A stretch of DNA of 64,000 bases from an uncultured Pseudomonadales bacterium (GCA_964406075.1 CAYOQI010000004.1:57718-121717); one strand, 5' to 3'. Positions 14,483-52,173 are shown, counted from the first letter of the stretch. The notes: generated by a model not told the origin, from the letters alone. Made by a program: numbers and translations.

Positions 14483-14519
14483 AAAAACGGACGGATGAGT
14501 TCCGCCCGTTTCTTTTTTA
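14483..14519 (-). terminator. rho-independent (bidirectional-looking) terminator downstream of ndk
   Basis: A 10-bp stem AAACGGACGG / CCGCCCGTTT (one mismatch) with loop ATGAGTT. It is flanked by an A5 run on the plus strand (T5 on the minus strand) and by TCTTTTTT on the other side. It lies 13 nt after the ndk stop. Confidence 0.65.
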
Positions 14520-14531
14520 TTTAAAAAAAAG

Positions 14532-14999: not shown

Positions 15000-15197
15000 A
15001 AAATATCCCTTTCTTTAAAACTTTGTAGATCTGGAAGAATTGTATGATAAAAAGAAAAAAATGCTAGCTTAAAGTCGAATGCTCATTTTTGAGCTCTTAT
15101 AAAATCCTTACTATTAGTATAGTATCCAAAAAAAATCATCTGTACTCATTTGGCTATTACACTAAAACAAATCGTGTTCAACTTATCATAAATTAGT

Positions 15198-15824: not shown

Positions 15825-15834
15825 AATCAACTCA

Positions 15835-17127: not shown

Positions 17128-17337
17128 ACTGTTCCTCTTTGTCTCACTCGAAGTGAGACAACCTAGTTAGGTAAAAACGGTTATTTATAACTTCACTCTC
17201 CACTTGTTCGCTGAGAAGCGTTTACATCCTAATTCGAATGCATCTCCTAAACAAGCTGGAAACCAATAACACCACCTACTAGCTGTATTAGTCTTATAAC
17301 TTAATTCGAAATACTATATCAAAACATATCATAATAC

Positions 17338-17364
17338 ATCTTAATATAAAGAATGTGATCAAAC
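17338..17364. repeat. 27-bp perfect direct repeat, copy 1
   Basis: ATCTTAATATAAAGAATGTGATCAAAC is identical to 17388..17414. The upstream context ATATCAAAA(C/G)ATATC is also duplicated. Confidence 0.85.
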
Positions 17365-17387: not shown

Positions 17388-17414
17388 ATCTTAATATAAA
17401 GAATGTGATCAAAC
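17388..17414. repeat. 27-bp perfect direct repeat, copy 2
   Basis: Identical to 17338..17364. It ends 22 nt upstream of the GTG start at 17436. Confidence 0.85.
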
Positions 17415-33204: not shown

Positions 33205-34890
33205 TTATTTTTGTTCCAATAAATTATTTCCGGTCATCTCTTTGGGTACAGGTAAATTCATCATGCCTAACATCGTTGGAGCGACATCACTTAATGCCCC
33301 TGGTCGTAGCTGAATTGCTGGATTATTTTTAAATGCTGGATTCATGATAACAAATGGAACGGGGTTATTTGAATGCTCTGTATTTACCGTCCCTGGACTA
33401 CTGGTAAAAAAGAAGCTCGATTGATCATAAGTCAGCAATTCTTCTACATTTCCATGATCTGCTGTGATACACAAAGTACCTTGTCTTTCGATTAATACAT
33501 CGACAATTTCTCCCACCGCTCGATCTACAATTTCACACGCTTTGATCGAGGCTGATAAATTTCCACTGTGCGCAACCATGTCCGGATTCGCAAAATTCAT
33601 GACGATAAAATGATACACATCTTTCTCTAAAGCCAGATGAAATTCTCGCATGATCTCAGACAGAGACATTTCAGGTTTACGATCATATGTCCCTACTTTG
33701 GAAGAAGGCACAATCATAATGTCTTCACCTGAAAATGGCTCAAGTCGCATGCCATCAAAATAATACGTCACCATTTTCTCCTTCTCACTTTCCGCTAGGT
33801 GAAATTGACGAAGGTTTTGTTGAGCCAATACCTCTGAAAGTGTATGCTCAACATCAATTTTGGGATATGCGACTGCGGACACAGGTAAATTATGCTGATA
33901 CTCAGTCATGGTCACAAAACATAAGTTTTTTAAAATAACTGGTCTCTCAAAGGTGCTCACTCTTTTTTGTTCTGTTGAATTCTTAGAGCTCTCGACCAAG
34001 ATTCCCTGTTCAAAATCTGGAAGCACAAATACTTGACTCAACTGCCTGGCACGATCTACACGAAAGTTAAAATAAATCATCGCATCGCCATCTTTGATAA
34101 AGACTGGAGGTTTTCCTGGTTGATTGATAAGAGTTGGGATGACAAATTCATCAGTTAAATTTTGCTCATATGAACTTTTTATAGCCTCAGAAGCACTCGT
34201 TGCCGTTGCTCCTTCTCCAAGCGTCATGACTCGATATACTTTTTCAGTCCTTTCCCATCTGGCATCTCTGTCCATAGCGTAGTAACGACCAGCTACTGAA
34301 ACAATTTGACCAAGTTGAAGCTCAACGAGTCGTTTCTCAATGGTTTCCATCACCCCTGCCCCATCCTGAGGAGGAGCATCTCTTCCATCGGTGAATAAGT
34401 GTAAATACACTCGAGTGAAGGATTGGCGTTTACACAATTCCAACAACGCAAATAAATGTTCGGTCGAAGAATGAACATTCCCTGAGCCAATTAATCCACA
34501 CACATGCAGATTGGTATTATTCTCTCTAGCATAACTAATTGCTTTGAGTAGTGCTCGGTTTGAATAAAAATCTCCAGTTTCAATTGCTTTATTTATTCGT
34601 GGCAAACTTTCCAACACAGTCCTTCCAACCCCCATCGTGAGGTGACCTACCTCAGAATTCCCTACTTCATTGGCTGGCAAACCGACAGATTCACCGGAAG
34701 CAATCAGCTTGGTATTTGGATACTCTGAAATGAGCTGATCCCATCTTGGTAACCGAGCCTGAGACATTGCATTTCCCGCTGAAGGCGGAGCGATTCCCCA
34801 CCCATCCAGCACCAATAAAACCATTGGCCGTATGTTGTACGTCTTGGGAGTAGAAGAAGCGTTGAATAAAGTATCAAGCCAGGAAGACAT
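33205..34890 (-). CDS. gpmI: 2,3-bisphosphoglycerate-independent phosphoglycerate mutase
   Basis: Motifs present are LLVLDGWGI, GNSEVGHLTMGVGR, YYAMDRDARWER and ITADHGN. Its stop lies 1 nt from the atpF start codon. Confidence 0.9.
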   Translation of the reverse strand: MSSWLDTLFNASSTPKTYNIRPMVLLVLDGWGIAPPSAGNAMSQARLPRWDQLISEYPNTKLIASGESVGLPANEVGNSEVGHLTMGVGRTVLESLPRINKAIETGDFYSNRALLKAISYARENNTNLHVCGLIGSGNVHSSTEHLFALLELCKRQSFTRVYLHLFTDGRDAPPQDGAGVMETIEKRLVELQLGQIVSVAGRYYAMDRDARWERTEKVYRVMTLGEGATATSASEAIKSSYEQNLTDEFVIPTLINQPGKPPVFIKDGDAMIYFNFRVDRARQLSQVFVLPDFEQGILVESSKNSTEQKRVSTFERPVILKNLCFVTMTEYQHNLPVSAVAYPKIDVEHTLSEVLAQQNLRQFHLAESEKEKMVTYYFDGMRLEPFSGEDIMIVPSSKVGTYDRKPEMSLSEIMREFHLALEKDVYHFIVMNFANPDMVAHSGNLSASIKACEIVDRAVGEIVDVLIERQGTLCITADHGNVEELLTYDQSSFFFTSSPGTVNTEHSNNPVPFVIMNPAFKNNPAIQLRPGALSDVAPTMLGMMNLPVPKEMTGNNLLEQK

Positions 34891-34902
34891 AGAAATAAAA
34901 AT

Positions 34903-35838
<936 letters not shown>

Positions 35839-36676
35839 TTATTAAGAATTTTCTCAATAAATGTCCAACCTTTGAACGATGTGTCTAAGTTTAAAATTTA
35901 AGAAATCATTAATTATTTCATTCACATTTTAAACTTTCTCAATGCAAATATTTTTAATATCACAAGGATTTTAAAATCAGCCTTTCTGTTATCATCCGTC
36001 ATTTTTTTGAATCACTTTTACGATGATCCTATATCATTCAGTGCTCAATGAGACGATAACAATTCTTATTGATTCCAATTTAGGCTTCAAATAACTACGA
36101 CTGAGTCCAACACTCTTCTTTTTTAATTTTCTCAAACAGAAAAGGAAATGAGTTTAAAATTACTTCATTTATATTTTTATATAAAAACAAAATTCTTTTT
36201 GAAAACAAGTTGATTGATTTTCATATATTCAAAAAATAATGATTGAGTTTGGTTTAGCAACTTCATCATTTGCTTCCACTCTTAGGTGATTTCTTTATCA
36301 CATAACACAAACGCATGCGTTAATAAACTATATTTGCATTGATAAATATTTTTTCTATCTTAGATTATATTTTTAACGATTACTGTTCTTGCGATATTAA
36401 TTGTTGCGTCTTCGGCTGAAATAATCTTGTGCTATTTTCAAAGAGTCTTCATTCCGCATTCATCACATAAACACCCACTGAAAGATTTTAACGATTTTAA
36501 AAAGACTTTGTATCAATTGATCAAGCAACTTGAGCGAAAATAATTTACAGAATCAAATGAGAGAAAATATTACCAGCAGGCTAAATATGTGAATAAAAAT
36601 GTGTTCGTTGTGAACTTTTATTTGTATTTTATTCGGTAATAATTAAACATGATTATTACGAAACACAGTACACCTC

Positions 36677-36706
36677 TTGACACCATCAGGTAAAAAATGC
36701 CTTAAT
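36677..36706 (+). promoter_or_regulatory. candidate sigma70-type promoter for the giant gene
   Basis: A consensus -35 TTGACA (36677-36682) is followed by an 18-nt spacer and CTTAAT (36701-36706), about 65 nt upstream of the ATG at 36772. The -10 match is only 4/6. Confidence 0.25.
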
Positions 36707-36771
36707 GAAGTTGGACAAAAAATGTGACAATTGCTCTTAAAATGTCCCACATTTCGTAAGAACGTAAAAAA

Positions 36772-39700
36772 ATGATTCCCAGTGATCTGCCCCCACTAGT
36801 CTCCATTCATGAAGCTGCAAAGTTTCTTAAAGTTTCGACAAAAACTTTACGTCGTTGGGAAGATCGACACATTTTGTTACCAGCTCGAACTTCTGGCGGA
36901 CACCGAAGATATGATCTCAACGAGATCAAGGCCTTCAAAAAACAAAAGTATTCCAGTGGCTCAGTCGTTCATCAAACAGTACTCCCACTTGCAACAGTTA
37001 AACCACTTGAATCAAAAGTGGTTGACCAAACAGATATTCTTCAAGTTTCCAAACCACTCATCATCAAACCCATTGATCATTTTCCGTTAAAAACACCGAA
37101 AGTAACTGCATACAAGCCATTCCCAGAGACAATTACGAAAGTAAAAAAAACATTTGAGTTTCCTTCATTCCAAGTTAGAAACAACATTCCTCCTCAGGTC
37201 GAAATTCCCACAGAGAAAATAACGGATTTCCCTATTCCAACCACTCCACCTTCTTGGGTGTCTGTCTCAATCGTGTTGGCTTTTTTCTTTATTTCAGCTG
37301 CAGCATTCAGTATTCAAGGTTTCTTCAAGCCTCTAGTTGCAAAACATCCAGTCCTAAGTGAAATTGCGTATTCCCTCGAAAAGAGATTGGCAATAAATGT
37401 TTTTCCTAAAAAAGAAGTGATGATTGTTCAGGCTAACGATAGCAAAGTCTTGGGAGAACACTCCAGCTTAGATTTTTTAAAATTTAATATTAATGTCGAG
37501 TCTTCTTTTCGCGAGTTTGCGAACTTCCTCTCAGATGTCAATGTCGAAGGAAATGCCACGGTCAGTGGAATTTTAAGTGTGAACTCCGGCTCACTTCAAA
37601 CAACTTCTGAAACAGCTCAAGTTTTTGAAAACGCTTCTACTCTCTCAATTGCTGCGAACACTGGCACCACAACAGTGAACAACTCACTAAACGTGGGTGG
37701 AAATTTAACAGTAATTGGTTTGATAAATGATATTGCCGGTACTCTCAATCTTTCCGGTAATACTTTGACTTCAACTGGTGATCTAGTTATTGATCCTGGC
37801 GGAGGTGGTGTTTCGATTGGAGATGCCACTCCAGGAATTATAGATATGACAGATGGAGATTTTTTTGTTTCAGGCGATGTAGAAATTGACGGCATTTTAT
37901 ACGCACCAACTGCAAATATATCAGGCACTGCGAGTATCGGCACTGTCTTGGTGAATTCCGACAGTATCAATGACTTTACTGGAACAGGCTTGACTGTCTC
38001 TGATGGAGCTCTTCAAACCACAATTGGCACATCGGTTTCTTCCTCTGAAATTGAGAATGACACAATTTTGGAAGAAGATCTTAAAGTCTCAAATGATGCG
38101 GTAAATGGTTATGCTCTTACCTATGATAATTCGACCGGCGGATTCACTTGGACAGATATTGCATCCAGTCAAGTTTGGATCGATGGTGGCTCAGTCTACT
38201 ATCAAGCCACGACCACCGATGATGTGGTGATTGGAGGTACTTCCAGCTTGGGTAAACTCTCGGTCGATGGGGATAGTGATGAAATCCAACTCGTAGTTCA
38301 AGGCAATGGGACGCAAACATCAAACATCTTCGTAGTTGAAGACTCCAGTGGGACAGATCTTTTTGTGGTGAACAATACTGGAAGCATCACCATTGCGTCT
38401 GGCCAAGATCTCACCATTGGGTCGATTGGATTGAATGATGTCGGAACAGATAATGTCACTTCTGGAGCATCACTTATCGGAGTGTTTGATGAATTCACTA
38501 ACTCCTCAGCTACGACACTACAAGATGTCCTCGATGATTTTGACGCTGCTATTGGTGGTGGAGCTTCAAAGTGGGCTCAAGATACTGGCTTTGTTTACCT
38601 AGCAAGTACGACTGACGACATCGTTGTCGGTGGTGACACAATAGCTAATGGTTCTTTGTATTTTGATGAATCTGCGGGAAGTCTGTATCTCGGAACTAAT
38701 GAGGCTTTGAACGGCTCACTTACTCTCTACTCTTCAGGAGCAGGGATAACTGACCCTACGATTACCGCAGATGCTACAGGAAATGCGAATATCACTACCT
38801 CTGCCACAGCCTTAGTAAATATATTAGCGGGTAATTTGAAAGTGGGTAATGGCGCGCCCACTCAGACCTTAAATGGTGAAGATGCCTATGTCGAAGGCAC
38901 GCTTGAAGTTGATGGGATACTCTACGCTGGTTCTGCCACTACAGCCTTAACCGTAGCAAGCGGACTGATCGATGCTGATGCAATTGCTTTAACTCCAACC
39001 ACTGAGGGATTAAGTGGTATCTCATCAGGCTCAGGTTTAGCGGTATACAGCGACACACTTTCTCTTCTCCAAGGTTGTGGTGATGGTCAAGTTTTGAAGT
39101 GGAACGAAACAAATGATTCATGGGAATGTGCAAATGATACCGGCGCTTCTTTTGCCGTGGTAAACATTGAGAACAATGATGTTGCAGTCGGGAGCAATGT
39201 CGATTCCATTGATTTCTCTACTGATTTCTTAGTCACTGCTTCCCCATCAAACGAAGCCAATGTTGCAATCGCCGATGACATTTTAAACTTCACAGAATTC
39301 TCTGATGCCCTTACCTTAGATGCCGCTACCACCATCACCAATTCTTTAGCCGGCAACTTGACAATCGACCTCACTTCAACCGGTGATTTCGTCATTGCAG
39401 ATGGTGGAGTTGCCTTCTTTACCTTTACTGATGGTGGTGCTTTAACTCAGGCTGGAAGCGGTCAAATAACCTTGACTGGAAACGTTGATGCTACAAATGG
39501 TCTTGATATAACAGGCGCTTCCCTAACGGTTGGTGGTGCAAATGCCACGATCACCACAGGTGGAGCGTTAACATTGGCATCAACAATTACAGCAGCGACC
39601 GACGAGACCATTAACGGCGTTGATATCAATGCCGGTACCGTTTCAGATGTTGTGAATTTAACTATTAATTCAGGTGGTGACTTAACCATTGGTTCAATCG

Positions 39701-42700
39701 GTTTGAATGATGTGGGTTCAGACAACATCACTTCCGGTGCTTCCTTAGTGGGAGTGTTTGATGAATTCACCAATTCAAGTGCAACAACTGTTCAAGACGT
39801 CTTAGATGATCTCGATGCAGCAATTGGTGCTGGTGCAAGTAAATGGACTGACTCTGGTACTGTTACCTACCTTACTGACACGACTGACAGTATTACGATT
39901 GGGAGTTCAACCGAACTTGGTAAACTTGCAGTCGATGGAGATGCTGATGAAGTTCAGTTATTAGTTCAAGGTAATGGAACCCAGACCAATGCCCTTGCAA
40001 TTTTTGAAGATTCAACAGGTGCTGACCAATTTAGCATTAGTAATACTGGAAACGTGACGTTAGCTGGAGATTTAACAATCAGTGGTGGAAATATTACCTC
40101 TGCAACTACCTTTGATTCCACCGCAACCGTAACAGGAACATTAACAGCAAATGGCACTTTAGATGCCAATGGGATCTTCACACTTGGTGACAATGGCGAA
40201 ACCGGTGCAATTGATACTTCTGATTGGGATATTTCTGCCACCGGTGTACTCACTGGAGTGAGTGGTATTACCACTGATGGTGGATACACTCAATCAGGCG
40301 CGACCGGAAATACATTTTCAGGCAATGTCGATGCAACTTCTGGCCTTGATGTCACAGGTGCTTCTCTGACTGTCGGTGGTGCAAATGCCACGATCACTAC
40401 AGGTGGAGCGTTAACTTTAGCCTCCACAATTACAGCCAACACAGATGAAACAGTGAACGGAGTTGATATTAATGCAGGGACTGTTTCTGATGTGGTGAAT
40501 TTAACAATCAATTCTGGTGGTGACTTAACTATCGGGTCAATCGGACTCAACGATATTGGTTCAGACAACATCACTTCCGGTGCTTCTTTAGTTGGAGTCT
40601 TCGATGAGTTTACTAATTCAGATGGTCTTAATGTACAAGATGTCCTTGATGACTTTGATGCTGCTATTGGTGCAGGTTCTAGTAAATGGACAGACTCTGG
40701 TACTGTTACCTACTTAACTTCTACTACTGATGACTTAGCCGTGGGAGGATCCACTGTCCTGGCTTCCATGTTTGGCATTGATGAATCGGCAGGAAATTTC
40801 TACTTTGGCTATGACAACTCAGTTTCCCCTACCTTCAACTTTGAAGCCTCTGATGGTGATGCTGGTGAATTTGGATTTAATACCAATGACACATTCTTCT
40901 TCTCCAATGCACGAGTGGGTGTCGGAACGACCAATCCTTCAAGGTTATTACATGTAAGTGATTCTTCAGGGTCGCCCGCCATTAGAGTTACTGGTTCAGC
41001 CAGTGGTTCACCGTTTATTGAGTTCGAACAGTCAGGAAATGTTAGAGGTGTTTTTGGTTATGATAATACAACTTCGACCTTGCAACTTGCATATGGAGCG
41101 AATTTTAGTACTACCTTCCTATCACTAAATAGTTCTGGTTCTATGGGTCTTGGAACCTCTGCACCTGACGCCGCATTAGAAATCAATCATGCTACGGGTG
41201 ATAGTTTACGACTTACATACAATGACTCAAATGGTTCCGCTACCAGCTACACAGACTTCTCTCTCGCCTCTGATGGAGATTTAACAATTGATAGTGCTGG
41301 TGGTGCCATAAACCTTGGTGCAAATGATGACCTCAATATCACTGCTTCTACTGACTTAATCTTTGGAGGATCAACCTCTCTTGGTGAATCTACAGGAGCG
41401 GCTGATTCAGGAGCTTTCTTAACTGGTATTTTTGATGAATTTGATAACTCTGCTTCCTCTACAGTACAAGATGTGATTGATGATATTGATGCAGCTATTG
41501 GAAATAGAACATACACTGCTGATAACTACGTGACTGATGGTCAAACTCTGACAGCTTCCATCAATGCCCTTGATATTGCACTTGCCTCTGTTTCAGGCGG
41601 TGCGTACACAGGATGGAGTATTGACGTGGATGATGACGGAGCTGATCCAATTGCAAGTGGAGCTACGCTGAATGTTGATGCTGGAAGTAATGTGTCATTG
41701 ACCTACACAGCTGGTACCAATACGCTTTTAATTGCTGCTACTGATACAAATACTACCTACACAGCTGGGAATGATCTTGATCTTACCGGAACGGTCTTCA
41801 GCCTAGAAACCACCCTCGATTTTGTCGACACAATTAATTTAGCTGGGACAGGAACTCTCAACGGTCTTGATGCCGTTGATGCTACTGGAGAAAATACTAT
41901 TGAGGCCCTGATCTTTGATACAGATGCTGAAAGTATTACCGGAGTCTGGACGGTAGCTGACTCGACCAACTTCAGAATTGGTACCGGTGGTGACTTAACC
42001 TTCGCTCATGATGGTTCAAACTCTACTATTACTAGTACGACGGGTGACTTACTTATCGACAATACAAATGCCACCGGTTCAACCATTTTTGACCTGGGCA
42101 CAGATACTTCAGCCACTGATTTCCTTATTAGGAATGATTCTGGCACTCAACTCTTAAGCTTGAACGGTGCCGGGGCACTTCAGCTTGGAAGCAATGGTCA
42201 AGATGGTCAGTTCATCCTCTACAACGAACTAGGTGTAACAGATTACACAAACACAATTAACCCAAGTGGTTCTCAGTCCCAAAACATCACCTATACCCTA
42301 CCTCCTGATGATGGTGGCGCTGATAATTACGTTCTCACCACGGATGGAAATGGCGTATTGCAATGGGAATCCGTCACTGGTGCCGGTGGAGGAAGTGGAG
42401 ATCTGACAGATATCATTGCTGGGAACTACATTGATGTTCAAAACGCTGGTGGTCCGAGTCCTACTGTAGACTTTGATCCAACCGAACTTGAAGGAGTGAC
42501 TTGGGGTGCCTCATCTGGCGCCAGTGAACCTTTTACCTGGACGTATGATGTGACGAACTCCGGAACTGATCCTTCCATCACTTTCGCGGACAATGCCATC
42601 ACTCTCACAGCAGCAACTCTTACAGCTAGTGGTGATTTAACAATTCAAGGTGGAGACGCAACGCTTGGAATGGCTGGAACCGATGGTTCGCTCACTTTTT

Positions 42701-45700
42701 ACAATGAACTCGGAGCCACAGATAGAAGTGTTATCTTTAACGTCTCGGGATCGCAGTCAGAAGATATTGTCTACACTCTTCCTCCTGATAATGGAGCTGC
42801 TGACAACTATGTTCTTACCACTGATGGGTCAGGTGTGTTGCAGTGGGAATCAGTTTCCGGAGCTGGTGGCGGAACAGGTGATGTTACCGATATCGTTGCT
42901 GGCAACTACATTGATGTTCAAAATGCTGGTGGCCCAAGCCCAACCGTGGACTTTGATCCAACTGAACTTGAAAGTGTGACCTGGGGAGCACAAACTGGTG
43001 CTTCATTTACCTGGACGTTTAATGCTTCATCTGGCACTGATACCAGTATCGCCTTTGCGGATGGCAGTATCTCCCCCACACTCGCTGCAACTGGACTATT
43101 CAATGTCTTAACTGGAAATTTGAAGGTCGGAAATGGAACACCTGGACTTTCGCTCGATGGTGAAGATGCATATATTGAAGGCACTTTTGAAGTGGACGGC
43201 GCATCTCAATTTGATGGTGCTTTGACAACTAATGGAACGTTAACCGCAAACGGCCAGTTCACACTCGGAGATAATGGTGATACTGGGGCTATTAATACCT
43301 CAGATTGGGATATTTCTACTACTGGTAGTCTCACAGGAATTTCTGGAATTGCGAATGACGGAAGCTATACCCAAACCGGATCAAGTGCAAATGCATTTAC
43401 AGGTGTAACAACATTTAACACTGATGTTGATTTCACCTTCGCTGATACTGAAAATATTGCCATTACTAATACCGTAACAGGCACAAACGGTCTCGATCTT
43501 ATTTCTGCTATTATCACAAATCAAACTTCCTCTGGAACTCAAAGAGGTATTGTTATTTCTAATGCGAACGATGCTGCCAACGCCTCAACTGAGTCATTAA
43601 TCTTCTTAGACAATGCCGAAACTACCGCTTCTACCCTTACAGACGCAATACTCATTACTTCATCTGGTGCTGATGGTGGCATTGTCGATGCCATTGATGT
43701 TTCAGCTGGCAACATCACCAATGCGCTCAATGTCGGTGGGAATAATATCATCGGAACAACAGCAGTCATAAACTTTGATAACTTTGACATTGATGGTTCA
43801 GGAAACCTCGTAACTGCTGGAACATTAACAGCTGCCACGAATGAAACAATTAATGGGGTTGATATCAATGCTGGAACTGTTTCAGATGTGGTGAATTTAA
43901 CAATCAATTCTGGTGGTGACTTAACTATTGGTTCAATCGGTCTCAATGATGTCGGATCAGACAACATCACCTCTGGGGCTTCCCTAGTTGGCATGTTTGA
44001 TGAGTTTGATAACTCTGCGTCCACCACAGTTCAAGATGTTATTGATGACATTGATGCAGCTATCGGGAATCGAACCTACACTGCTGATAACTATGTGACT
44101 GACGGTCAGAGTTTAACCGCTTCGATTGATGCCCTTGATGTTGCTCTTGCTGCTGTCTCCGGTGGTGCGTACACGGGCTGGGATTTAGATGGTGATTCCG
44201 GAACCGCCGAAACCATTGCTAATGGCAATACGGTCAATATCCTCGGTGGCACCAATGGAATTGATACCGTCGTAAGTGCGACTGATACTTTAACTATTAA
44301 TTTAGATACTACGGAAATTGGTACAAGCACTTTTGGATCTGGATCAGGTTTTACTTGGACTTTTGACGCCGGTGCTACTGATCCCACACTTGCCTTTGCA
44401 AGTAACGCCATTACTATCGGGGGTGCTGCTACACTCAACTTTGGCGGTACTCTTGACCTCGGAACAAACACTCTCAGTGATGGCAACTTTAATGGTAACT
44501 GGGCATTTAATAGTGGAAATCTCTCCGGGATTGGAACCATCGGTGCTTCTGGTGCGATTACTGCTGCAACCGATGAGACCATTAACGGCGTTGATATTAA
44601 TGCAGGGACTGTTTCTGATGTGGTGAATTTAACAATCAATTCTGGTGGTGACTTAACTATCGGGTCAATCGGACTCAACGATATTGGTTCAGACAACATC
44701 ACTTCCGGTGCTTCTTTAGTTGGAGTCTTCGATGAGTTTACTAATTCAGATGGTCTTAATGTACAAGATGTCCTTGATGACTTTGATGCTGCTATTGGTG
44801 CAGGTTCTAGTAAATGGACAGACTCTGGTACTGTTACCTACTTAACTTCTACTACTGATGACTTAGCCGTGGGAGGATCCACTGTCCTGGCTTCCATGTT
44901 TGGCATTGATGAATCGGCAGGAAATTTCTACTTTGGCTATGACAACTCAGTTTCCCCTACCTTCAACTTTGAAGCCTCTGATGGTGATGCCGGAGAGTTT
45001 GGTTTTAATACCAGTGATTCCTTCTTCTTTAGTAACGCCTTAGTTGGTATTGGAACTGCAAGTCCAAGCGAACAGCTAGAAGTTGGAGGAAATATCGAGC
45101 TAACTGCTGCAGTTCCTCGTCTTGCGTTTGACAATACGAACGGTGATAACGATTGGTATATACAAGCTTCAGCCACTGGCTTTCAGTTTAGAAACTCATC
45201 TGATAACGTCAACTACCTTTTGATCAATCAAACAGGTCTTGTAAGCATTGGTGGAGATGATTCCCCTGATTATCTGCTAGAACTTTATGATGCCACAGCC
45301 ACTCCTACATTTGCCTTATCTGATGATGATGTTACACACGGACTCACAACACTTGCTCAGACAGATGTGTTTTCTCATCTAACATCACTCTCAACCACAG
45401 CCGGAGGTGCAGAACTTACCACAATCAGTGACACAGATGCTCAAGCACTATCGATCCGAGGCGTGATTGGTTCTACTGACCCGACCGATACGACTCCAGC
45501 AGTTAAGCTTGTAGGTGCAAAGAGTAATGGAACAACCGGTATGGCAGATCTTGGTGCAGCAGAAACAGTATTCCAAGTTGCAAACAATGATGACGCTTCA
45601 GCATTAACAATACTTGGGAATGGAAATGTTGGGATCGGTGATACAACGCCAGCTGCACTTCTGACCGTTGGAACATCAGATGCATTACAAATTGATGCTT

Positions 45701-48700
45701 CTGGAAATGTTGTGACGACTGGAACAGTAACTGCAGCTACGAATGAAACAATTAATGGAGTTGATATTTCAGCAGGAACGGTTTCCGATGTGGTGAATTT
45801 AACAATTAACTCAGGTGGTGACTTAACTATTGGTTCAATTGGTTTGAATGATGTTGGAAGTGACAACATCACTTCTGGAGCATCGCTCGTTGGTGTGTTT
45901 GATGAGTTCACCAACTCAAGCGCAACAACAGTTCAAGATGTCTTAGATGATCTCGATGCAGCAATTGGTGCTGGGGCAAGTAAATGGACTGATGGTGGAG
46001 CTATTACCTACTTAACAGCAACAACAGATGACCTCGCTGTCGGTGCTTCCAACACTCTCACTGCTCCTTTCTCTGTCGATGTCTCTGCCAACTTAGTCAG
46101 AATCGGTACTGGTTCAACAGCCAATGCTCAACTTGACATGTATGCTTCAGATGGCGACACAGGAAGTCTTATTTACAATACTTCAGATCAATTTAACTTC
46201 ACCGGTGGTGATGTCTTGATTGGTCAGGCATTAACAGTAACTGGAACAACTACCGCCAATGGTGCCTTTGATGCCAATGGTCAGTTCGATCTTGGAGATG
46301 GTGGCGATGCTGGAACAATTTCTGCAACTACGCTAGACATTGATGCCACAGGTGCTCTTCAAATTAACTCCTCAGGTGGAGCTATTGGGATTGGTAATGA
46401 TGCTGTTGCTCAAGCAATTAACATTGGCACTGGTGCTGCAGCTCGAACCATCACTATGGGAAACAATACCGGTGCTTCAGCGCTCCAACTTACCTCAGGA
46501 ACTGGCGACATTACTTTGACATCAACTGACGATATCTTATTCACTCCTACTGACGATATGCTCGCAACCTTTGCCGCAGGCTCAGCATTTACTATAGATG
46601 CTGCAACCACTGATACGACAGTAACCGGCGGAGTTCTTGCCCTTGATGTCGATGCTGGAAATGCGGCTGTGATTGGAATTGATTTAGATTTTTCTCAATC
46701 AAGTGGAGCAACGACAGGGACAGATGCTATTGGTCAAAACATCGCTGTTTCAGCCAATGATGCAGATGGTGATGTATTTGGACTTTCAATCCGATCAAAT
46801 GCCACAGCCAATGCTGGAGTGGGTTCTTATGAGGCATTAATTCGACTAATTAATGCTGAAGATACCGCCTCGGCTGTAACAGACGCTATTTTAATTGACT
46901 CAACTTCAGGCGTAGACGGTGACATCATTGATGCGATCGATGTTTCTGATGCAAATATCACCAACGCTTTGAATGTTGGCGCCAACAATATTATTGGTAC
47001 TTCAGCTGTTATCAATTTCTCAAGCTTTGATGTAGATGCTTCAGGAAATACGATAATTGGTGGAACACTCGACGTCACTGGAATTTCAACTCTAGTTGGC
47101 AACTTGAACGCAAACGGTGGTCTTGATGTCGATAACGCATTCGTTGTAGCGGATGGTGGAGTGTTAACCACCTCTCAAACTGCTAACTTTGATGGCACAG
47201 CTGACTTTGATGGTGCTGCCGACTTCTCCGCTGGAGTTACAAACTCTGCAGGTGAATTCTTAGTTTCAGGTGGAAACCTCCAGCTCAATGACAATATTAA
47301 TTTGACGGTTGGAACTGGTGATGACTTAACTATCGTTCACAATGGAACCAACACACTTCTCACTTCCGTAACGGGTGACTTAATCTTTGATAATACTTTA
47401 GTAACTGGTTCTACTATCTTTGATCTTGGAACCGATACCTCTGCAACTGACTTCTTAATTCGAAACAATTCTGGAACTCAACTTCTCAGCATGAACGGTG
47501 CTGGTGCATTCCAACTTGGATCAAATGGTCAAGATGGCCAGTTCATTCTCTATAACGAACTGGGTGGAACTGACTACACAAATACAATTAACCCAAGTGG
47601 TTCTCAATCTCAAAATATTACCTATACCCTCCCTCCAGACGACGGCGGACTAAACTACGTTCTTACCTCAGATGGTAGTGGTGTACTCACCTGGCAGTCT
47701 GTCGGTGGAATCGGAGCTGGTGGAGATTTAACTGACATTGTTGCCGGAAACTACATTGATGTCCAAAATGCTACCGGGCCAAGTCCTACAATAGATTTCG
47801 ATCCAACCGAACTCGAAACCGTGACCTGGGGTGCCCAAGCTGGATCTTCCTTTGCTTGGACATTTAACGCGTCAAGTGGCACTGATCCTGTCATGACATT
47901 TGCCGATAATGCCATCACTCTTACAGCTGCTACCACTACTCTCTCTGGAGATCTTGCGATCAATGGTGGAAATGTCACAACCGCGACCACCTTTGACTCA
48001 ACACTGACAGCAACAGGGACACTTACAGCAAATGGAGCCCTTGATGCTAATGGTCAGTTCGATCTTGGAGATGGTGGCGATGCTGGAACAATTTCTGCAA
48101 CTACGCTAGACATTGATGCCACAGGTGCTCTTCAAATTAACTCCTCAGGTGGAGCTATTGGGATTGGTAATGATGCTGTTGCTCAAGCAATTAACATTGG
48201 CACTGGTGCTGCAGCCAGAACAATCACAGTGGGAAACAATACCGGTGCCTCCGCACTCCAACTCACCTCAGGAACCGGAGACATCAACTTGAATTCTGCC
48301 GATGATATTTTCCTGAGTCCAAGTGATGACCTTACGGCCTTCATCACCGCCGTTGGTCAATTTACTATTGATGCGGCAACAATTGATAGTCAGAATACCC
48401 TCGGCGCATTTAGACTTGATATTGATAGCTCTACATCAGGGACTATTGGATTCTTGACCAACTTTAGAGCTATTGATGATGACGCAGCCGACATTCTCTA
48501 CGCCAATCGTACTGATGTCACAATTCAAGATGATACCACTGCTTCTGACACCGTCTATGGAAATTATATTAGTCTCATTCAGAATGACACCACACCAGCA
48601 ACAACATATGGCTTAGCGGTAGTAGCAGAAGATGCTGGTACTTCCCCTGTCTCTACTGGAATCTTAATTGAAAACTTACAAGCAACTGATATTGATCTCA

Positions 48701-51700
48701 CCGATGGTCTGTTGATCAGAGCAACAACAGATGGTTCATTAGTAGATGCTATTGATGCGTCAGATGCAGAAATTACCAATGCCTTAAATATTGGGGCAAA
48801 CACAATCTTAGGAACAACTGGGGTTATCGATTTCACTAACTTTGATGTTGCAGCTACAGGTGCGCTCTCACTCTCTACCGCCGGAAATACCTCAGCCTCC
48901 TTCACCAGAACATCTGCTGGTCAATGGATGGCATTCAACGATGGCACCGATACTTGGGGTATTTACAACACCGCTGGTAGTCCTGAAGCATCGTTGACCG
49001 CAAATACTGGAGCCCTCGCAATGGATACAACCAATGGAACTCTCTATGTCAAAACTGATGATGGCGATAACACAGGGTGGGTAAACCTCGCTTCCGGTGC
49101 TTCTTCACCTTGGACTGATTCAGGGACGACTTCCTACTTAACCGATACTACAGATGAAGTAGTGATTGGTGGAGCTTCCCCACTTTCCAGTGCCAAATTT
49201 TCAATCGATGGAGATGCGGATCAAACTCAACTACTTGTCCAAGGCAATGCAACTCAAACCACAGACCTCGCAATCTTTGAGAACTCAGCGGGAGCAGATC
49301 AATTCAACTTCAGTAATACTGGAAACTTGATTGCAGCTGGAGACATTACTGCCACTGGTGGAACATTCAACGGTGCATCTGGAGAAAGTATTGACCTCGG
49401 AGTCGCAAGCTCAGATGTCCTCACCTTCACGACTGGAGCCTCAACTGAACTACTCCTTTCCACAACTAACTTAACAGCTGGAACAGCTGAAGGAAACTCA
49501 CTTGGATCTGCAACAGTAGAATGGGAACAACTCTTCCTTGGTGATAACAATGGAATTTCCTTTGGTCTCGATCAAGATTGGTCATTTGGTTATGATGAAG
49601 CTACAGATGATCGACTTGAATTAATCACAGCAGGAACGTCTGGAATGTTAATCCAATCCGCAACGGCTACTGGCAACGGATTAGCACTTACTTTTGATTC
49701 ACTCTCAACCGGTGAAGGACTCTACTTGTCTTCTACTTCAACAGCATTAACATCAGGTGGACATCTTGGTCTCTTCGAGTGGAATCCTGGAAGTGCCAGT
49801 TCGACCACCGCAGATCTGTTTAGTATCAATATTGGAAGTAACGCCACTGTGCTGGGAGATATCTTTAATGTTCAAGATAACGGCTCTGATCTTTTCTCCG
49901 TTGGAGAAGCTCAAATTACCTCTGCTCTTCCCCACTCATTTACCGCAGCCGGCGATGTATCAGTGGCCTACGATCTCCAATTTACCAATCAAACTGCTAG
50001 TTATTTGAAAACATACGGCCCACTTCAGATCGAAGCTGGTGAATCGTTTGAATCAAATAACTTAACGATAAAAACATATAACTCAGGTGACGTCGTCATT
50101 GATCTACCAGCCACCGGCCAAATGATCGTACAAGGTGCGTTCTCAATTGGAGATCAGCAAACACTTCCTGCCGGAACCACACCTTCCGTAGCCGGTGGTT
50201 CACACTACATTGGAAACGCGAATGGATTGATCACCAACTTCACCAGTGGAACTGCAGGTCAGATCCTAGTACTTGAGTTCGATGGAACTTCGACTGACCT
50301 CGACTGTAGCACTGCCGGACCGATTCGTTGTGGAAGTACAGATATCACTACCCAACAAGCAGCCGGTGACATCATTACCTTCATTTATGACGGAACAAAC
50401 TGGAACATGATCGAGTATGTAGCACTGGACGCAGACTCTACAGCTGGAGCTGACCTTGCCGAGTACTACCCCGCTTCTGAACACTTAGAGCCAGGTGACA
50501 TCGTCAGTATTGATTCAACTCAGCCAGTGATGGTGGAAAAATCTCACGAGTCTCATCGTCAACGAATAATGGGTATCGTATCAAGTGATCCAGGATTATT
50601 ACTTGGTGAAGAAGCGGATAATTCTTACCCCATCGCCTTGGCAGGGCGTGTGCATGTAAAAATGTCAGAATCATCTGAAGCTATTCAACCCGGCGACTTA
50701 GTTGGAGTTTCTCAGGAAACCGGAAAAGCCAAAAAAGTAAACTCTGGATATACAGTTGGCCGTGCTCTTGAATCATGGGATCCAAACTCTGGCGATCGAG
50801 ATGTGGTGGTATTTGTGAACTTATCATATATTCCCGTAGATTTAGCTTTAAATAATGATGGTCAAGTCAGCTCAAGCTACTCACTTATTACGACGGATTC
50901 TCTTGAGTACGCGATTCGCGATCTGAACAATGGACAGGATATTCAACAAACCTTAGTCTTGGCCGAATCATTGATTGGACGACTGGAAACCGGAAGTATA
51001 GTTACTCGAGAATTACAAGCTCAAAGTATCGAAACTGAAGACTTCCTCACGAATAACGCCACAGTATCTGGACAACTCAATGCCAACTCTGCAGAAATTA
51101 ACTCATTGAGATTTGAAACCGCCACAGTGGCGGGTCAACTTTTCTTATCAGATGGACGAAGTGTCGGCTCATTACTGGATGAAAATGATGCCTACTTAGC
51201 TTCCCTCTCAGCTCAGACCCAACAACTCGCACAATCATTTAGTGAGCAAACTGTCCCAGGCACATCCACAGCCTTTGATGAATTCCTCGCTCAACTGACA
51301 GGTACAGAAGACGCTTCTCTCTCAGCTGCCTTAGCAGCAATTCAGAATCAAGAAGATATTGAACTCGATGCAGAAAGCATGGTCCTGGCACCAGACGCAG
51401 TCTTTGTCAAAGAATACTTGAATGTCACCGGCTTCACTCAATTAACTACGGCCAGCATTTCTCAATCACTTACTGTGGGAGATGGTTTACTCTTAACTCA
51501 AGATACGATCGCCACAGCAGAGGAAACACTCTATATCCAACCAACTGCCGGATCACTGAACTTACTCGCCGGTTTGATGACACTCACTCCAGATGGAAAC
51601 GTCACGATTAACGGTGATCTGACTGTTACTGGAATCGCTTCCATTACTGATGGAGTGAAAACTAGTCAGCTCTCTCCAAATGACTTTACGCAAGATTTGA

Positions 51701-52173
51701 CAGTCAAACTTGCATCAGAATCAGCCTCAGTCTTGGGCACAACTGATAGCTCAGAGTTCCAGATTTTGAACGCCAGTAACTCAGCAGTGGCCAGTATCGA
51801 TGCATCTGGATCCGCCAAGTTCTCTAGCATTTCAACTGAAGGCTTAGTCTTGAAACAACCTCAGTCAGAGGCATCATCCTCTGCTCAACGACAAGCTGAA
51901 ATTGCTCGCAAACAAACAGCGGGACAATTAACTCTTGAGGCTGGTGAAGTCACAATGGAAATTGAGAATGATAATGTTGAAGACGACAGCTTGATTTATC
52001 TCACTGCAACTTCAGATACTCAAAACCAAGTCATGTATGTTGGAGAGAAAGAAACCTGTGCATTTGCTGGCCCAACCTGTCAAACCAGCTTCACCGTAAA
52101 AATTAATCAACCGATTGCTACAGACATTAAGTTCAACTTCTGGATTGTAAATGTCTCAAAACAACAGCCGTAA
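36772..52173 (+). CDS. giant (5133 aa) surface repeat protein: N-terminal MerR/excisionase-type HTH, single TM anchor, Thr/Gly/Asp/Asn-rich repetitive ectodomain
   Basis: An uninterrupted 15.4-kb ORF. Residues 10-57 (SIHEAAKFLKVSTKTLRRWEDRHILLPARTSGGHRRYDLNEIKAF) match the MerR/HTH_17 pattern. Residues ~161-185 (WVSVSIVLAFFFISAAAFSIQGFF) form the only TM segment. At least 7 copies of a TINSGGDLTIGSIGLNDVGSDNITSGASLVGVFDEFTNS..VQDVLDD.DAAIG module lie between ~38400 and 45980. Three copies of a GSTIFDLGTDTSATDFLIRN...ITYTLPPDDG..YVLT.DG.GVL.W module also occur. There is almost no Cys. Confidence 0.9.
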   Translation: MIPSDLPPLVSIHEAAKFLKVSTKTLRRWEDRHILLPARTSGGHRRYDLNEIKAFKKQKYSSGSVVHQTVLPLATVKPLESKVVDQTDILQVSKPLIIKPIDHFPLKTPKVTAYKPFPETITKVKKTFEFPSFQVRNNIPPQVEIPTEKITDFPIPTTPPSWVSVSIVLAFFFISAAAFSIQGFFKPLVAKHPVLSEIAYSLEKRLAINVFPKKEVMIVQANDSKVLGEHSSLDFLKFNINVESSFREFANFLSDVNVEGNATVSGILSVNSGSLQTTSETAQVFENASTLSIAANTGTTTVNNSLNVGGNLTVIGLINDIAGTLNLSGNTLTSTGDLVIDPGGGGVSIGDATPGIIDMTDGDFFVSGDVEIDGILYAPTANISGTASIGTVLVNSDSINDFTGTGLTVSDGALQTTIGTSVSSSEIENDTILEEDLKVSNDAVNGYALTYDNSTGGFTWTDIASSQVWIDGGSVYYQATTTDDVVIGGTSSLGKLSVDGDSDEIQLVVQGNGTQTSNIFVVEDSSGTDLFVVNNTGSITIASGQDLTIGSIGLNDVGTDNVTSGASLIGVFDEFTNSSATTLQDVLDDFDAAIGGGASKWAQDTGFVYLASTTDDIVVGGDTIANGSLYFDESAGSLYLGTNEALNGSLTLYSSGAGITDPTITADATGNANITTSATALVNILAGNLKVGNGAPTQTLNGEDAYVEGTLEVDGILYAGSATTALTVASGLIDADAIALTPTTEGLSGISSGSGLAVYSDTLSLLQGCGDGQVLKWNETNDSWECANDTGASFAVVNIENNDVAVGSNVDSIDFSTDFLVTASPSNEANVAIADDILNFTEFSDALTLDAATTITNSLAGNLTIDLTSTGDFVIADGGVAFFTFTDGGALTQAGSGQITLTGNVDATNGLDITGASLTVGGANATITTGGALTLASTITAATDETINGVDINAGTVSDVVNLTINSGGDLTIGSIGLNDVGSDNITSGASLVGVFDEFTNSSATTVQDVLDDLDAAIGAGASKWTDSGTVTYLTDTTDSITIGSSTELGKLAVDGDADEVQLLVQGNGTQTNALAIFEDSTGADQFSISNTGNVTLAGDLTISGGNITSATTFDSTATVTGTLTANGTLDANGIFTLGDNGETGAIDTSDWDISATGVLTGVSGITTDGGYTQSGATGNTFSGNVDATSGLDVTGASLTVGGANATITTGGALTLASTITANTDETVNGVDINAGTVSDVVNLTINSGGDLTIGSIGLNDIGSDNITSGASLVGVFDEFTNSDGLNVQDVLDDFDAAIGAGSSKWTDSGTVTYLTSTTDDLAVGGSTVLASMFGIDESAGNFYFGYDNSVSPTFNFEASDGDAGEFGFNTNDTFFFSNARVGVGTTNPSRLLHVSDSSGSPAIRVTGSASGSPFIEFEQSGNVRGVFGYDNTTSTLQLAYGANFSTTFLSLNSSGSMGLGTSAPDAALEINHATGDSLRLTYNDSNGSATSYTDFSLASDGDLTIDSAGGAINLGANDDLNITASTDLIFGGSTSLGESTGAADSGAFLTGIFDEFDNSASSTVQDVIDDIDAAIGNRTYTADNYVTDGQTLTASINALDIALASVSGGAYTGWSIDVDDDGADPIASGATLNVDAGSNVSLTYTAGTNTLLIAATDTNTTYTAGNDLDLTGTVFSLETTLDFVDTINLAGTGTLNGLDAVDATGENTIEALIFDTDAESITGVWTVADSTNFRIGTGGDLTFAHDGSNSTITSTTGDLLIDNTNATGSTIFDLGTDTSATDFLIRNDSGTQLLSLNGAGALQLGSNGQDGQFILYNELGVTDYTNTINPSGSQSQNITYTLPPDDGGADNYVLTTDGNGVLQWESVTGAGGGSGDLTDIIAGNYIDVQNAGGPSPTVDFDPTELEGVTWGASSGASEPFTWTYDVTNSGTDPSITFADNAITLTAATLTASGDLTIQGGDATLGMAGTDGSLTFYNELGATDRSVIFNVSGSQSEDIVYTLPPDNGAADNYVLTTDGSGVLQWESVSGAGGGTGDVTDIVAGNYIDVQNAGGPSPTVDFDPTELESVTWGAQTGASFTWTFNASSGTDTSIAFADGSISPTLAATGLFNVLTGNLKVGNGTPGLSLDGEDAYIEGTFEVDGASQFDGALTTNGTLTANGQFTLGDNGDTGAINTSDWDISTTGSLTGISGIANDGSYTQTGSSANAFTGVTTFNTDVDFTFADTENIAITNTVTGTNGLDLISAIITNQTSSGTQRGIVISNANDAANASTESLIFLDNAETTASTLTDAILITSSGADGGIVDAIDVSAGNITNALNVGGNNIIGTTAVINFDNFDIDGSGNLVTAGTLTAATNETINGVDINAGTVSDVVNLTINSGGDLTIGSIGLNDVGSDNITSGASLVGMFDEFDNSASTTVQDVIDDIDAAIGNRTYTADNYVTDGQSLTASIDALDVALAAVSGGAYTGWDLDGDSGTAETIANGNTVNILGGTNGIDTVVSATDTLTINLDTTEIGTSTFGSGSGFTWTFDAGATDPTLAFASNAITIGGAATLNFGGTLDLGTNTLSDGNFNGNWAFNSGNLSGIGTIGASGAITAATDETINGVDINAGTVSDVVNLTINSGGDLTIGSIGLNDIGSDNITSGASLVGVFDEFTNSDGLNVQDVLDDFDAAIGAGSSKWTDSGTVTYLTSTTDDLAVGGSTVLASMFGIDESAGNFYFGYDNSVSPTFNFEASDGDAGEFGFNTSDSFFFSNALVGIGTASPSEQLEVGGNIELTAAVPRLAFDNTNGDNDWYIQASATGFQFRNSSDNVNYLLINQTGLVSIGGDDSPDYLLELYDATATPTFALSDDDVTHGLTTLAQTDVFSHLTSLSTTAGGAELTTISDTDAQALSIRGVIGSTDPTDTTPAVKLVGAKSNGTTGMADLGAAETVFQVANNDDASALTILGNGNVGIGDTTPAALLTVGTSDALQIDASGNVVTTGTVTAATNETINGVDISAGTVSDVVNLTINSGGDLTIGSIGLNDVGSDNITSGASLVGVFDEFTNSSATTVQDVLDDLDAAIGAGASKWTDGGAITYLTATTDDLAVGASNTLTAPFSVDVSANLVRIGTGSTANAQLDMYASDGDTGSLIYNTSDQFNFTGGDVLIGQALTVTGTTTANGAFDANGQFDLGDGGDAGTISATTLDIDATGALQINSSGGAIGIGNDAVAQAINIGTGAAARTITMGNNTGASALQLTSGTGDITLTSTDDILFTPTDDMLATFAAGSAFTIDAATTDTTVTGGVLALDVDAGNAAVIGIDLDFSQSSGATTGTDAIGQNIAVSANDADGDVFGLSIRSNATANAGVGSYEALIRLINAEDTASAVTDAILIDSTSGVDGDIIDAIDVSDANITNALNVGANNIIGTSAVINFSSFDVDASGNTIIGGTLDVTGISTLVGNLNANGGLDVDNAFVVADGGVLTTSQTANFDGTADFDGAADFSAGVTNSAGEFLVSGGNLQLNDNINLTVGTGDDLTIVHNGTNTLLTSVTGDLIFDNTLVTGSTIFDLGTDTSATDFLIRNNSGTQLLSMNGAGAFQLGSNGQDGQFILYNELGGTDYTNTINPSGSQSQNITYTLPPDDGGLNYVLTSDGSGVLTWQSVGGIGAGGDLTDIVAGNYIDVQNATGPSPTIDFDPTELETVTWGAQAGSSFAWTFNASSGTDPVMTFADNAITLTAATTTLSGDLAINGGNVTTATTFDSTLTATGTLTANGALDANGQFDLGDGGDAGTISATTLDIDATGALQINSSGGAIGIGNDAVAQAINIGTGAAARTITVGNNTGASALQLTSGTGDINLNSADDIFLSPSDDLTAFITAVGQFTIDAATIDSQNTLGAFRLDIDSSTSGTIGFLTNFRAIDDDAADILYANRTDVTIQDDTTASDTVYGNYISLIQNDTTPATTYGLAVVAEDAGTSPVSTGILIENLQATDIDLTDGLLIRATTDGSLVDAIDASDAEITNALNIGANTILGTTGVIDFTNFDVAATGALSLSTAGNTSASFTRTSAGQWMAFNDGTDTWGIYNTAGSPEASLTANTGALAMDTTNGTLYVKTDDGDNTGWVNLASGASSPWTDSGTTSYLTDTTDEVVIGGASPLSSAKFSIDGDADQTQLLVQGNATQTTDLAIFENSAGADQFNFSNTGNLIAAGDITATGGTFNGASGESIDLGVASSDVLTFTTGASTELLLSTTNLTAGTAEGNSLGSATVEWEQLFLGDNNGISFGLDQDWSFGYDEATDDRLELITAGTSGMLIQSATATGNGLALTFDSLSTGEGLYLSSTSTALTSGGHLGLFEWNPGSASSTTADLFSINIGSNATVLGDIFNVQDNGSDLFSVGEAQITSALPHSFTAAGDVSVAYDLQFTNQTASYLKTYGPLQIEAGESFESNNLTIKTYNSGDVVIDLPATGQMIVQGAFSIGDQQTLPAGTTPSVAGGSHYIGNANGLITNFTSGTAGQILVLEFDGTSTDLDCSTAGPIRCGSTDITTQQAAGDIITFIYDGTNWNMIEYVALDADSTAGADLAEYYPASEHLEPGDIVSIDSTQPVMVEKSHESHRQRIMGIVSSDPGLLLGEEADNSYPIALAGRVHVKMSESSEAIQPGDLVGVSQETGKAKKVNSGYTVGRALESWDPNSGDRDVVVFVNLSYIPVDLALNNDGQVSSSYSLITTDSLEYAIRDLNNGQDIQQTLVLAESLIGRLETGSIVTRELQAQSIETEDFLTNNATVSGQLNANSAEINSLRFETATVAGQLFLSDGRSVGSLLDENDAYLASLSAQTQQLAQSFSEQTVPGTSTAFDEFLAQLTGTEDASLSAALAAIQNQEDIELDAESMVLAPDAVFVKEYLNVTGFTQLTTASISQSLTVGDGLLLTQDTIATAEETLYIQPTAGSLNLLAGLMTLTPDGNVTINGDLTVTGIASITDGVKTSQLSPNDFTQDLTVKLASESASVLGTTDSSEFQILNASNSAVASIDASGSAKFSSISTEGLVLKQPQSEASSSAQRQAEIARKQTAGQLTLEAGEVTMEIENDNVEDDSLIYLTATSDTQNQVMYVGEKETCAFAGPTCQTSFTVKINQPIATDIKFNFWIVNVSKQQP
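40462..40862 (+). repeat. 401-bp perfect intragenic repeat, copy A
   Basis: By eye it is identical base for base to 44590..44990 (offset 4128 bp). Identity stops abruptly at both ends. Confidence 0.85.
44590..44990 (+). repeat. 401-bp perfect intragenic repeat, copy B
   Basis: See copy A. The flanking sequence is only about 70-85% similar. Confidence 0.85.
46276..46442 (+). repeat. 167-bp perfect intragenic repeat, copy A
   Basis: Identical to 48049..48215 (offset 1773 bp). The following ~100 nt are about 85% similar. Confidence 0.85.
48049..48215 (+). repeat. 167-bp perfect intragenic repeat, copy B
   Basis: See copy A. Confidence 0.85.

Follow-up and report, generated by a model that had tools for sequence, protein, structure and literature searches.

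The subject of this analysis is a single giant gene within a 64,000-nucleotide (nt) stretch of DNA (GCA_964406075.1, CAYOQI010000004.1:57718-121717; hereafter 'the window'), in which one segment of 401 bp occurs twice without a single difference. The gene, an open reading frame (ORF) on the plus strand, encodes a protein of 5133 amino acids (aa), and the two copies of the segment lie inside it as direct repeats, 4128 bp apart. Our analysis indicates that their identity was probably established by recent intragenic gene conversion between two old paralogous blocks of modules, which has left behind a substrate for in-frame deletion, and that the closest relative found (CAZBKJ010000007.1, here L001) shows the arrangement expected from a crossover between the two copies. 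The segments on which this argument turns are the following, with R designating the exact tract:

36772-52173, plus strand: giant ORF, 5133 aa; a helix-turn-helix (HTH), one transmembrane (TM) helix, then repeats
40126-40461, plus strand: L1, 5' of copy 1, orthologous to L001 9854-10189
40426-40932, plus strand: homology block 1, alignable over its whole length with 44554-45060
40462-40862, plus strand: R copy 1, exact 401-bp tract, aa 1231-1364
40863-44589, plus strand: X, between the R copies, 3727 bp; together with one R it makes up the 4128-bp unit that L001 lacks
44554-45060, plus strand: homology block 2, alignable with 40426-40932
44590-44990, plus strand: R copy 2, exact 401-bp tract, aa 2607-2740
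44991-45968, plus strand: R2, 3' of copy 2, orthologous to L001 10591-11568

The identity of the two segments, first noticed in a sequence-only reading of the window, holds at all 401 of 401 bases, and the run is maximal, with positions 40461 and 40863 on either side mismatched. No other exact repeat of the entire window comes near this length, the runners-up measuring 167 bp and 44 bp. Its composition is ordinary, and the coding frame is its only open frame. That the copies are direct and in frame (4128 = 3 x 1376) had been pointed out as well and is correct, but the in-frame spacing does not count as an independent observation, because coding repeats read in the same frame are automatically spaced in this way; indeed, the offsets of all 19 exact repeats of at least 20 bp within the giant gene (19/19) are divisible by three.

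Inspected at the level of codons, the block that can be aligned at the 4128-bp offset comprises 507 bp (40426-40932 versus 44554-45060). A self-BLAST of the gene, as had been proposed, does pick up the repeat, but shows the homology at this offset to be short (40441-40901). Beyond 40426 and 40932, identity drops to 27-31%, i.e. to random, and the proteins run on into different modules. The idea that the copies are embedded in long diverged paralogous modules of 4.1 kb therefore had to be abandoned: homology extends over no more than ~507 bp, and the gene as a whole is a mosaic in which modules have been shuffled. Inside the block, all 35 mismatches fall into a left flank of 36 bp and a right flank of 72 bp. 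In the former, 13 of 36 positions are mismatched (64% identity), nine of them at third positions, and 3 of 12 residues differ; in the latter, 22 of 72 positions are mismatched (69% identity), with 14 at third positions and 5 of 24 residues different. The synonymous sites of both flanks are saturated. A similarity of '70-85%' just outside the tract, as previously estimated, thus applies to the nearest 21 bp on the left (six mismatches, 71%) and the nearest 39 bp on the right (eight mismatches, 79%), but not to the flanks as a whole. The tract itself contains no difference in 133 codons with ~97 synonymous sites, which corresponds to a 95% upper bound of ~0.03 for synonymous divergence (dS). Given 35 mismatches in 507 bp, the probability of an uninterrupted run of at least 401 bp is P <= 3.4e-25.

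An obvious question is whether selection on the protein alone could have kept the two copies identical. The R region opens with 300 nt that form part of a module family, termed D1, of which there are five in-register copies. Those lying outside R copies 1 and 2 include the following:

39586-39885, plus strand: D1-family copy; against the R copies, dS 1.0-1.2 and 90-92% aa identity
43825-44124, plus strand: D1-family copy inside X; a 44-bp exact run is common to it and both R copies
45727-46026, plus strand: D1-family copy, old paralogue of the start of the R region

Among themselves, the D1 copies exhibit 69-93% identity at the protein and 69-81% at the nt level, with dS of 1.0-2.0 and non-synonymous divergence (dN) of 0.07-0.25, values that mark them as old paralogues under purifying selection. 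Selection at the protein level fails to explain the identity of the tract because the other D1 copies, with 84-93% protein identity, have reached a dS of 1.0-2.0. The 44-bp run common to three D1 copies has P ~5e-4 uncorrected and is marginal. Comparison of the giant protein with itself confirms the mosaic, with several module types recurring in varying order.

The age of the tract can be judged against L001, which shares about 80% nt and 91% aa identity with the window gene; two large scans, of genome and metagenome contigs, with the L1-R-R1' protein (R1' being the module at 40933-41960 that forms the start of X) returned nothing closer, only more distant homologues. The syntenic orthologue in L001 is an ORF at 4805-17308, which encodes 4167 aa (identical to P0037) and has the same HTH and TM start. 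This metagenome-assembled genome (MAG) is labelled 'uncultured Pseudomonadales bacterium', with similar labels on L004 and L016; the L001 label is likely a taxonomic mislabel, because the locus is syntenic with a window of the Patescibacteria type, also known as the candidate phyla radiation (CPR), and the L001 genome is clearly of that type.

Three-way comparison of the two copies with the single R block of L001 gives opposite patterns for flanks and tract. Over the 36 nt of the left flank, copy 1 agrees with L001 against copy 2 at eight sites, with two sites for each of the alternatives. Over 70 nt of the right flank, copy 2 agrees with L001 against copy 1 at 13 sites; copy 1 agrees with L001 at six, mostly within the first 23 nt, and the two copies agree with each other at three. 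In the 401 nt of the tract, however, the copies agree with each other against L001 at 92 sites, and the alternatives account for none (0 and 0). Of the 34 flank sites that vary, 21 thus follow the orthologue pattern (P = 6e-4 when tested against a star tree with equal thirds, from few sites). Because the site patterns of flank and tract are opposed, the comparison indicates that two R-type blocks predate the split between window and L001, and that the identity of the tract postdates it. Such a pattern is the signature of concerted evolution as defined in PMC6053082. Recent gene conversion or recombination, the origin suggested by the sequence-only reading, is hence supported by a tract dS of 0 as compared with 1-2 in the paralogues, by the nesting of the tract in older homology and by the concerted-evolution pattern relative to L001.

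L001 is informative also with respect to structure. Window positions 40126-40928 align to L001 9854-10656 (offset -30272) and positions 44557-45968 to L001 10157-11568 (offset -34400), and these two offsets differ by exactly 4128. The single R of L001 is accompanied by the context of copy 1 on its left (L1) and by that of copy 2 on its right (R2); per 30 nt, identity to L001 is 0.63-0.90 in L1 and 0.70-0.93 in R2, with 90% and 92% aa identity, respectively, and there is no similarity to the alternative context on either side. No counterpart of the R1' module was found in L001. When 40126-40862 is fused directly to 44991-45968, this virtual deletion product matches L001 9854-11568 in a single ungapped high-scoring segment pair of 1715 bp with 79.9% nt identity and 519 of 571 residues identical, although this match is to a different species (~80% nt identity) and to a short-read MAG, in which loop-skipping is possible. 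By its L1-R-R2 arrangement, by offsets differing by 4128 and by this ungapped alignment, L001 corresponds to the product expected of a crossover between the R copies. The expectation that such a crossover would remove exactly 1376 codons in frame is thus supported on an evolutionary scale. The simplest reading would be a two-R ancestor, from which the L001 lineage lost one unit by a crossover near the right end of the block. The R-then-R1'-type order is also present in P0067, a distant homologue and the only one to show it.

How could this state have come about? The gene would have contained several module types in shuffled order, among them two old blocks of ~507 bp, each consisting of the D1 motif and the next segment and separated by an offset of 4128 bp. 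Over at least 401 bp, one block would recently have been overwritten with the sequence of the other through intrachromosomal homologous recombination, either by RecA-type, non-reciprocal gene conversion or, equivalently, by a double crossover or gap repair from the other copy. This would have erased all differences, including synonymous ones, and, by ending inside the homology, would have allowed the diverged flanks to persist. The presumed outcome, a perfect direct repeat of 401 bp, would be well over the minimal length for efficient RecA-type recombination; in E. coli, the minimal efficient processing segment is ~25-30 bp. Were the two copies then to undergo a single crossover or replication slippage, R plus X (1376 codons) would be lost in frame and the protein shortened to 3757 aa, while unequal sister exchange would duplicate R plus X. 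The single-R orthologue of L001 would most simply be such a deletion derivative.

The tract is not the only one of its kind. A second pair, T2, lies further downstream in the same gene:

46276-46442, plus strand: T2 copy 1, 167-bp exact tract, P <= 2.2e-16
48049-48215, plus strand: T2 copy 2, 167-bp exact tract, offset 1773, in frame

T2 is located inside a 382-bp alignment, the rest of which is ~71% identical (62 mismatches at 215 non-tract positions). Because its right flank decays gradually, from about 88% to lower values, T2 suggests an older or overlapping conversion event. When examined for the pattern of a recombinant orthologue, T2 did not show it, and the collinearity of L001 is confined to T2 copy 2. 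Beyond the window, an 1801-aa ORF of the Woesebacteria type (L026) carries a sharp-edged exact tract of 200 bp (10343-10542 and 10967-11166, offset 624, P <= 4e-12), which spans the homologous D1-like motif (…IGSIGL…LIGAFDEFTNS…VQDVLDDLD…). Two further contigs end inside exact intragenic repeats, L015 in one of 66 bp (9975-10040 and 10599-10664) and L007 in one of 127 bp (12461-12587 and 13598-13724). Contig ends of this kind are probably the expected footprint of such tracts in short-read assemblies, so intact contigs would under-report them. Taken together, these cases suggest that the conversion process recurs in the giant gene and its homologues.

Several points weigh against conversion followed by deletion as the full account. 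The polarity of the R-plus-X difference is based on 106 flank sites only and on no usable outgroup: in L018 the flanks are unrelated modules, and the other homologues are too diverged for polarity. The window gene and L001 also differ in the order and number of other modules (5133 versus 4167 aa), and because of these additional rearrangements more than one event must have separated them. All identical runs in the flanks, as they now stand, are too short for efficient RecA pairing, which does not account for where the exchange ended. The L001 contig is a short-read SPAdes MAG contig, in which an X loop skipped at a collapsed repeat could mimic a deletion; if so, however, L001 would itself hold two near-identical R copies, again indicating conversion. 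The perfect identity could partly be an effect of consensus building or polishing on copies that are really, for example, 97-99% identical. Finally, a Logan contig from the same strain (L027, SRR12762304) is 100% identical to window 34081-38423 over 4343 bp, but ends 2 kb before the tract and so provides no independent copy of it. It was retrieved with the exact sequence of a 308-aa neighbouring protein; exact look-ups of iPGM (cofactor-independent phosphoglycerate mutase), of the 2506-aa neighbour and of a guessed C-terminal fragment beginning k-1 bases ahead of the T2 end gave no record. The end of this contig at 38423 is ten bases into the first D1-like repeat, where there is no exact window repeat of at least 20 bp; the branch at this position may come from another paralogous gene or from a co-occurring strain.

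An assembly or polishing artefact, in which similar copies were made identical by bubble-popping, consensus or polishing with multi-mapped short reads or, in the extreme, a chimeric contig was formed, is an alternative that we consider unlikely. The window does come from the assembly of an uncultured organism, and the identical protein P0036 is on one NCBI contig of 135 kb; moreover, the gene family is hard to assemble, as seen from L007 and L015, which end in exact repeats, and from L002, which lacks five pieces of 31-44 bp that are present in the otherwise identical L018. Yet cross-mapping and bubble-popping require copies that are already near-identical, and the step from 0% to about 30-35% divergence within a few bases at either end would even then point to a genuine tract of recent origin. 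Across all junctions, the ORF remains open over 15.4 kb, the flanks of T2 are graded rather than razor-sharp as would be expected from collapse, and a similar tract occurs in the unrelated assembly L026. Furthermore, the very existence of the contig needs R on both sides of X. By this adjacency, with X beginning after one R and ending before another, both copies appear to be real, because a single R could not have yielded the contig unless X-R were circular or tandem. As to L002, L018 and L019, these represent one Roizmanbacteria population with 99-100% identity. The gaps in L002 (31-44 bp) are not multiples of three, and the indels between L002 and L018 were rejected as repeat-mediated variants; the pieces missing from L002, a GW2011 record, look like silently closed assembly gaps.

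An alternative history, which strikes us as rather improbable, would start from an L001-like ancestor with a single R, into which an X with R-type ends was recently integrated by recombination in R, thereby duplicating R; the donor would be another allele, another giant gene or an excised circle. The L1-R-R2 structure of L001, which differs by exactly R plus X, would fit this history, polarity is not fixed by an outgroup, and R1' is without an L001 counterpart. However, X carries at its ends homologues of the R-block flanks whose divergence goes back beyond the split between window and L001 (8:2:2 and 13:6:3 in the site counts above), and two R-type blocks should therefore have existed before this split. 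Campbell-type integration, moreover, yields identical repeats only if the R sequences of donor and target are already identical, and R followed by an R1'-type module also occurs in the distant P0067. Even insertion would still use homologous recombination at R, and it departs from conversion only in history. Constraint at the nucleotide level, i.e. an RNA element, internal promoter or binding site present twice, was raised only because synonymous sites are identical as well and has nothing positive in its favour. We regard it as very improbable: Rfam yields no match between 36000 and 53000, the tract is open in the coding frame alone, four other copies of the module are free to vary at synonymous sites (dS 1-2), and the orthologue in L001 differs at 92 of 401 sites. 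Diversity-generating retroelements (DGRs) are frequent in CPR genomes, and a surface protein would be a suitable target. Nevertheless, a DGR pair of template repeat (TR) and variable repeat (VR) is scarcely credible here, since the copies have zero mismatches and hence no adenine-specific variation, both are coding and in the same ORF, and 401 bp is several times the usual TR/VR length; in addition, no reverse transcriptase was found among the scanned window ORFs of at least 150 aa (small reverse-strand ORFs inside the giant gene excepted). The retroelement and RNA-element readings of the tract were thus both rejected.

More far-reaching, and in our estimate quite doubtful, is the idea that D1 is a built-in recombination cassette, with recurrent conversion keeping chosen pairs identical and cells switching, at an appreciable frequency, between long and short or re-shuffled fibres. 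If true, the window and L001 forms would be two states rather than the result of a one-off deletion, and the host or surface specificity of an episymbiont would be varied in this way, possibly coupled to signalling via a membrane-tethered HTH.

What kind of protein is subject to these rearrangements? Its N-terminal features are as follows:

36799-36948, plus strand: MerR/HTH_17 helix-turn-helix, aa 10-59; Pfam PF00376, PF13411, PF12728
37255-37326, plus strand: hydrophobic stretch WVSVSIVLAFFFISAAAFSIQGFF, aa 162-185, the sole one; putative membrane anchor, read by eye from the translation

The giant protein is identical to P0036 (NCBI), which forms a singleton 90% cluster. PF00376 matches with 37.4 bits and 2.2e-9 (cut-off 28.2) and PF13411 with 34.9 bits (cut-off 21.6), and NCBIfam models classify the N-terminus as a BldC/HspR-like HTH. 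The profile matches end at about position 47-49; the dimerisation coiled coil and effector-binding domain of MerR were not found after the HTH, and full-length MerR-type NCBIfam models score far under their cut-offs. What follows is a linker, the TM helix and 4950 aa of repeats. This body (~4950 aa) consists of mosaic repeats rich in Thr, Gly, Ala, Ser and Asp, and has no match in sequence searches of Pfam, PHROG, NCBIfam and PDB and none in phage records (tblastn). An AlphaFold2 model of aa 1195-1420, built from a shallow alignment, was nearly all coil (pLDDT 69, pTM 0.38) and was left unused as uninformative. The giant protein is probably membrane-anchored and exposed at the cell surface, and its HTH would be cytoplasmic. 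A cytoplasmic HTH tethered to an ectodomain of ~4950 aa could be a ToxR-like membrane-tethered regulator, or else merely a retained anchor.

The module of the R region is widespread. An exhaustive HMMER search found it in 910 cluster representatives, many of them 2-6 thousand aa in length and several with the same HTH start, and the homologues bear the labels Roizmanbacteria, Woesebacteria, Saccharibacteria, Dojkabacteria, WWE3 and Microgenomates. The HTH and TM start is found in L001 (4805 onwards), P0038, P0041, P0042 and L028, and recurs in many Patescibacteria homologues of 2-6 thousand aa; fragments of the family go by the NCBI name 'MerR family transcriptional regulator, partial'. In L028 (ENA ERZ25039527 contig_67474), from an unrelated organism, giant genes with a MerR start stand in tandem and encode 5279, 597, 1652 and >1363 aa, and the 1652-aa protein carries a Peptidase_S74 intramolecular-chaperone domain. 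The L028 locus hints that members of the family may be trimeric fibre-like proteins encoded by clustered genes.

The window as a whole is a bacterial chromosome segment of the Patescibacteria/CPR type with a GC content of 41%, and its genes include those for aminoacyl-tRNA synthetase, F-type ATP synthase, cofactor-independent phosphoglycerate mutase (iPGM), ComEC, sortase, a pilin-like protein and glycosyltransferases. The gene next to the giant one is itself large:

52448-59968: next gene, 2506 aa, with eight Laminin_G_3 / neurotoxin-receptor-binding-like repeats

Its counterpart in L001 is syntenic, with 81.5% nt identity. Unlike the giant gene, the 2506-aa gene has no internal exact repeat of at least 20 bp. 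A surface-apparatus cluster at 8041-14076 encodes a sortase, a coupling ATPase resembling TrwB/TraG, a protein with a VWA domain and a pilin-like protein whose N-terminus bears a methylation motif; it also contains small ORFs that lack annotation. In the intergenic region upstream of a Wzy_C/O-antigen-ligase-like gene (17436-18788), 27 bp are directly repeated without a mismatch at 50-bp spacing (17338-17364 and 17388-17414).

The mechanism proposed here is well known and no part of it is new; novelty is confined to the little-studied gene family and lineage in which it is seen to operate. In cagY of Helicobacter pylori, direct repeats also lie inside a large surface-protein gene and every repeat-to-repeat recombination is in frame (Aras et al. 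2003, PMC2194252), which compares with the exact repeats of the giant gene, all in frame, and with the putative R-plus-X deletion form of its relative. In contrast, cagY variants have been observed within single hosts and shown to alter antibody recognition; cagY has hundreds of short repeats, the giant gene a few long ones (401 and 167 bp) amid diverged modules, and the two proteins belong to unrelated families. As in rRNA operons, tuf and similar cases (PMC8022953, PMC6053082), paralogues within one genome are closer to each other than to orthologues, and sharp tracts with homogenised synonymous sites are observed. Those, however, are separate genes or operons that stay identical over most of their length for long periods, whereas here the process is intragenic and affects 401 bp of a 507-bp block among modules whose synonymous sites are elsewhere saturated. 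Surface proteins of Gram-positive bacteria such as alpha C, Rib and the M proteins contain identical tandem repeats. In the PE/PPE genes of Mycobacterium tuberculosis, recombination likewise homogenises repetitive antigen genes and alters repeat number (PMC13061034). In most of these cases, near-identical repeats stand in tandem or the genes form multi-gene families, and the organisms are pathogens facing adaptive immunity, whereas the giant gene has a dispersed pair and comes from a CPR bacterium, free-living or episymbiotic, on which no immune pressure is known to act.

Closer to home, very large surface proteins of Patescibacteria have been proposed to serve host attachment (PMC13059738), and giant genes have been described in predatory and epibiotic bacteria (bioRxiv 10.1101/2023.11.21.568195). 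Like the giant protein, the proteins in these two reports are multi-thousand-residue, membrane-anchored and repeat-rich, they come from ultra-small bacteria and their repeats fragment short-read assemblies; unlike it, they have FN3, ConA-like, integrin and other adhesion domains, whereas its body matches no Pfam, PHROG, NCBIfam or PDB family and it begins with a MerR-type HTH. Intragenic conversion is described in neither report.

Overall, the gene described here offers a well-documented case in which giant unannotated surface proteins of CPR/Patescibacteria would evolve by homologous recombination between internal modules, with both homogenisation, i.e. conversion, and the in-frame loss or gain of kilobase-sized blocks to be seen. 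Such tracts would also be the reason why these genes break or become mis-assembled in short-read MAGs. A role of the resulting length variation in attachment is speculation, and the antigenic variation proposed in the sequence-only reading is hypothetical. The alternative junctions L1-R-R2 and L1-R-X-R-R2, however, can be screened for in long-read metagenomes, and this would reveal the rate at which these presumed host-attachment fibres change.

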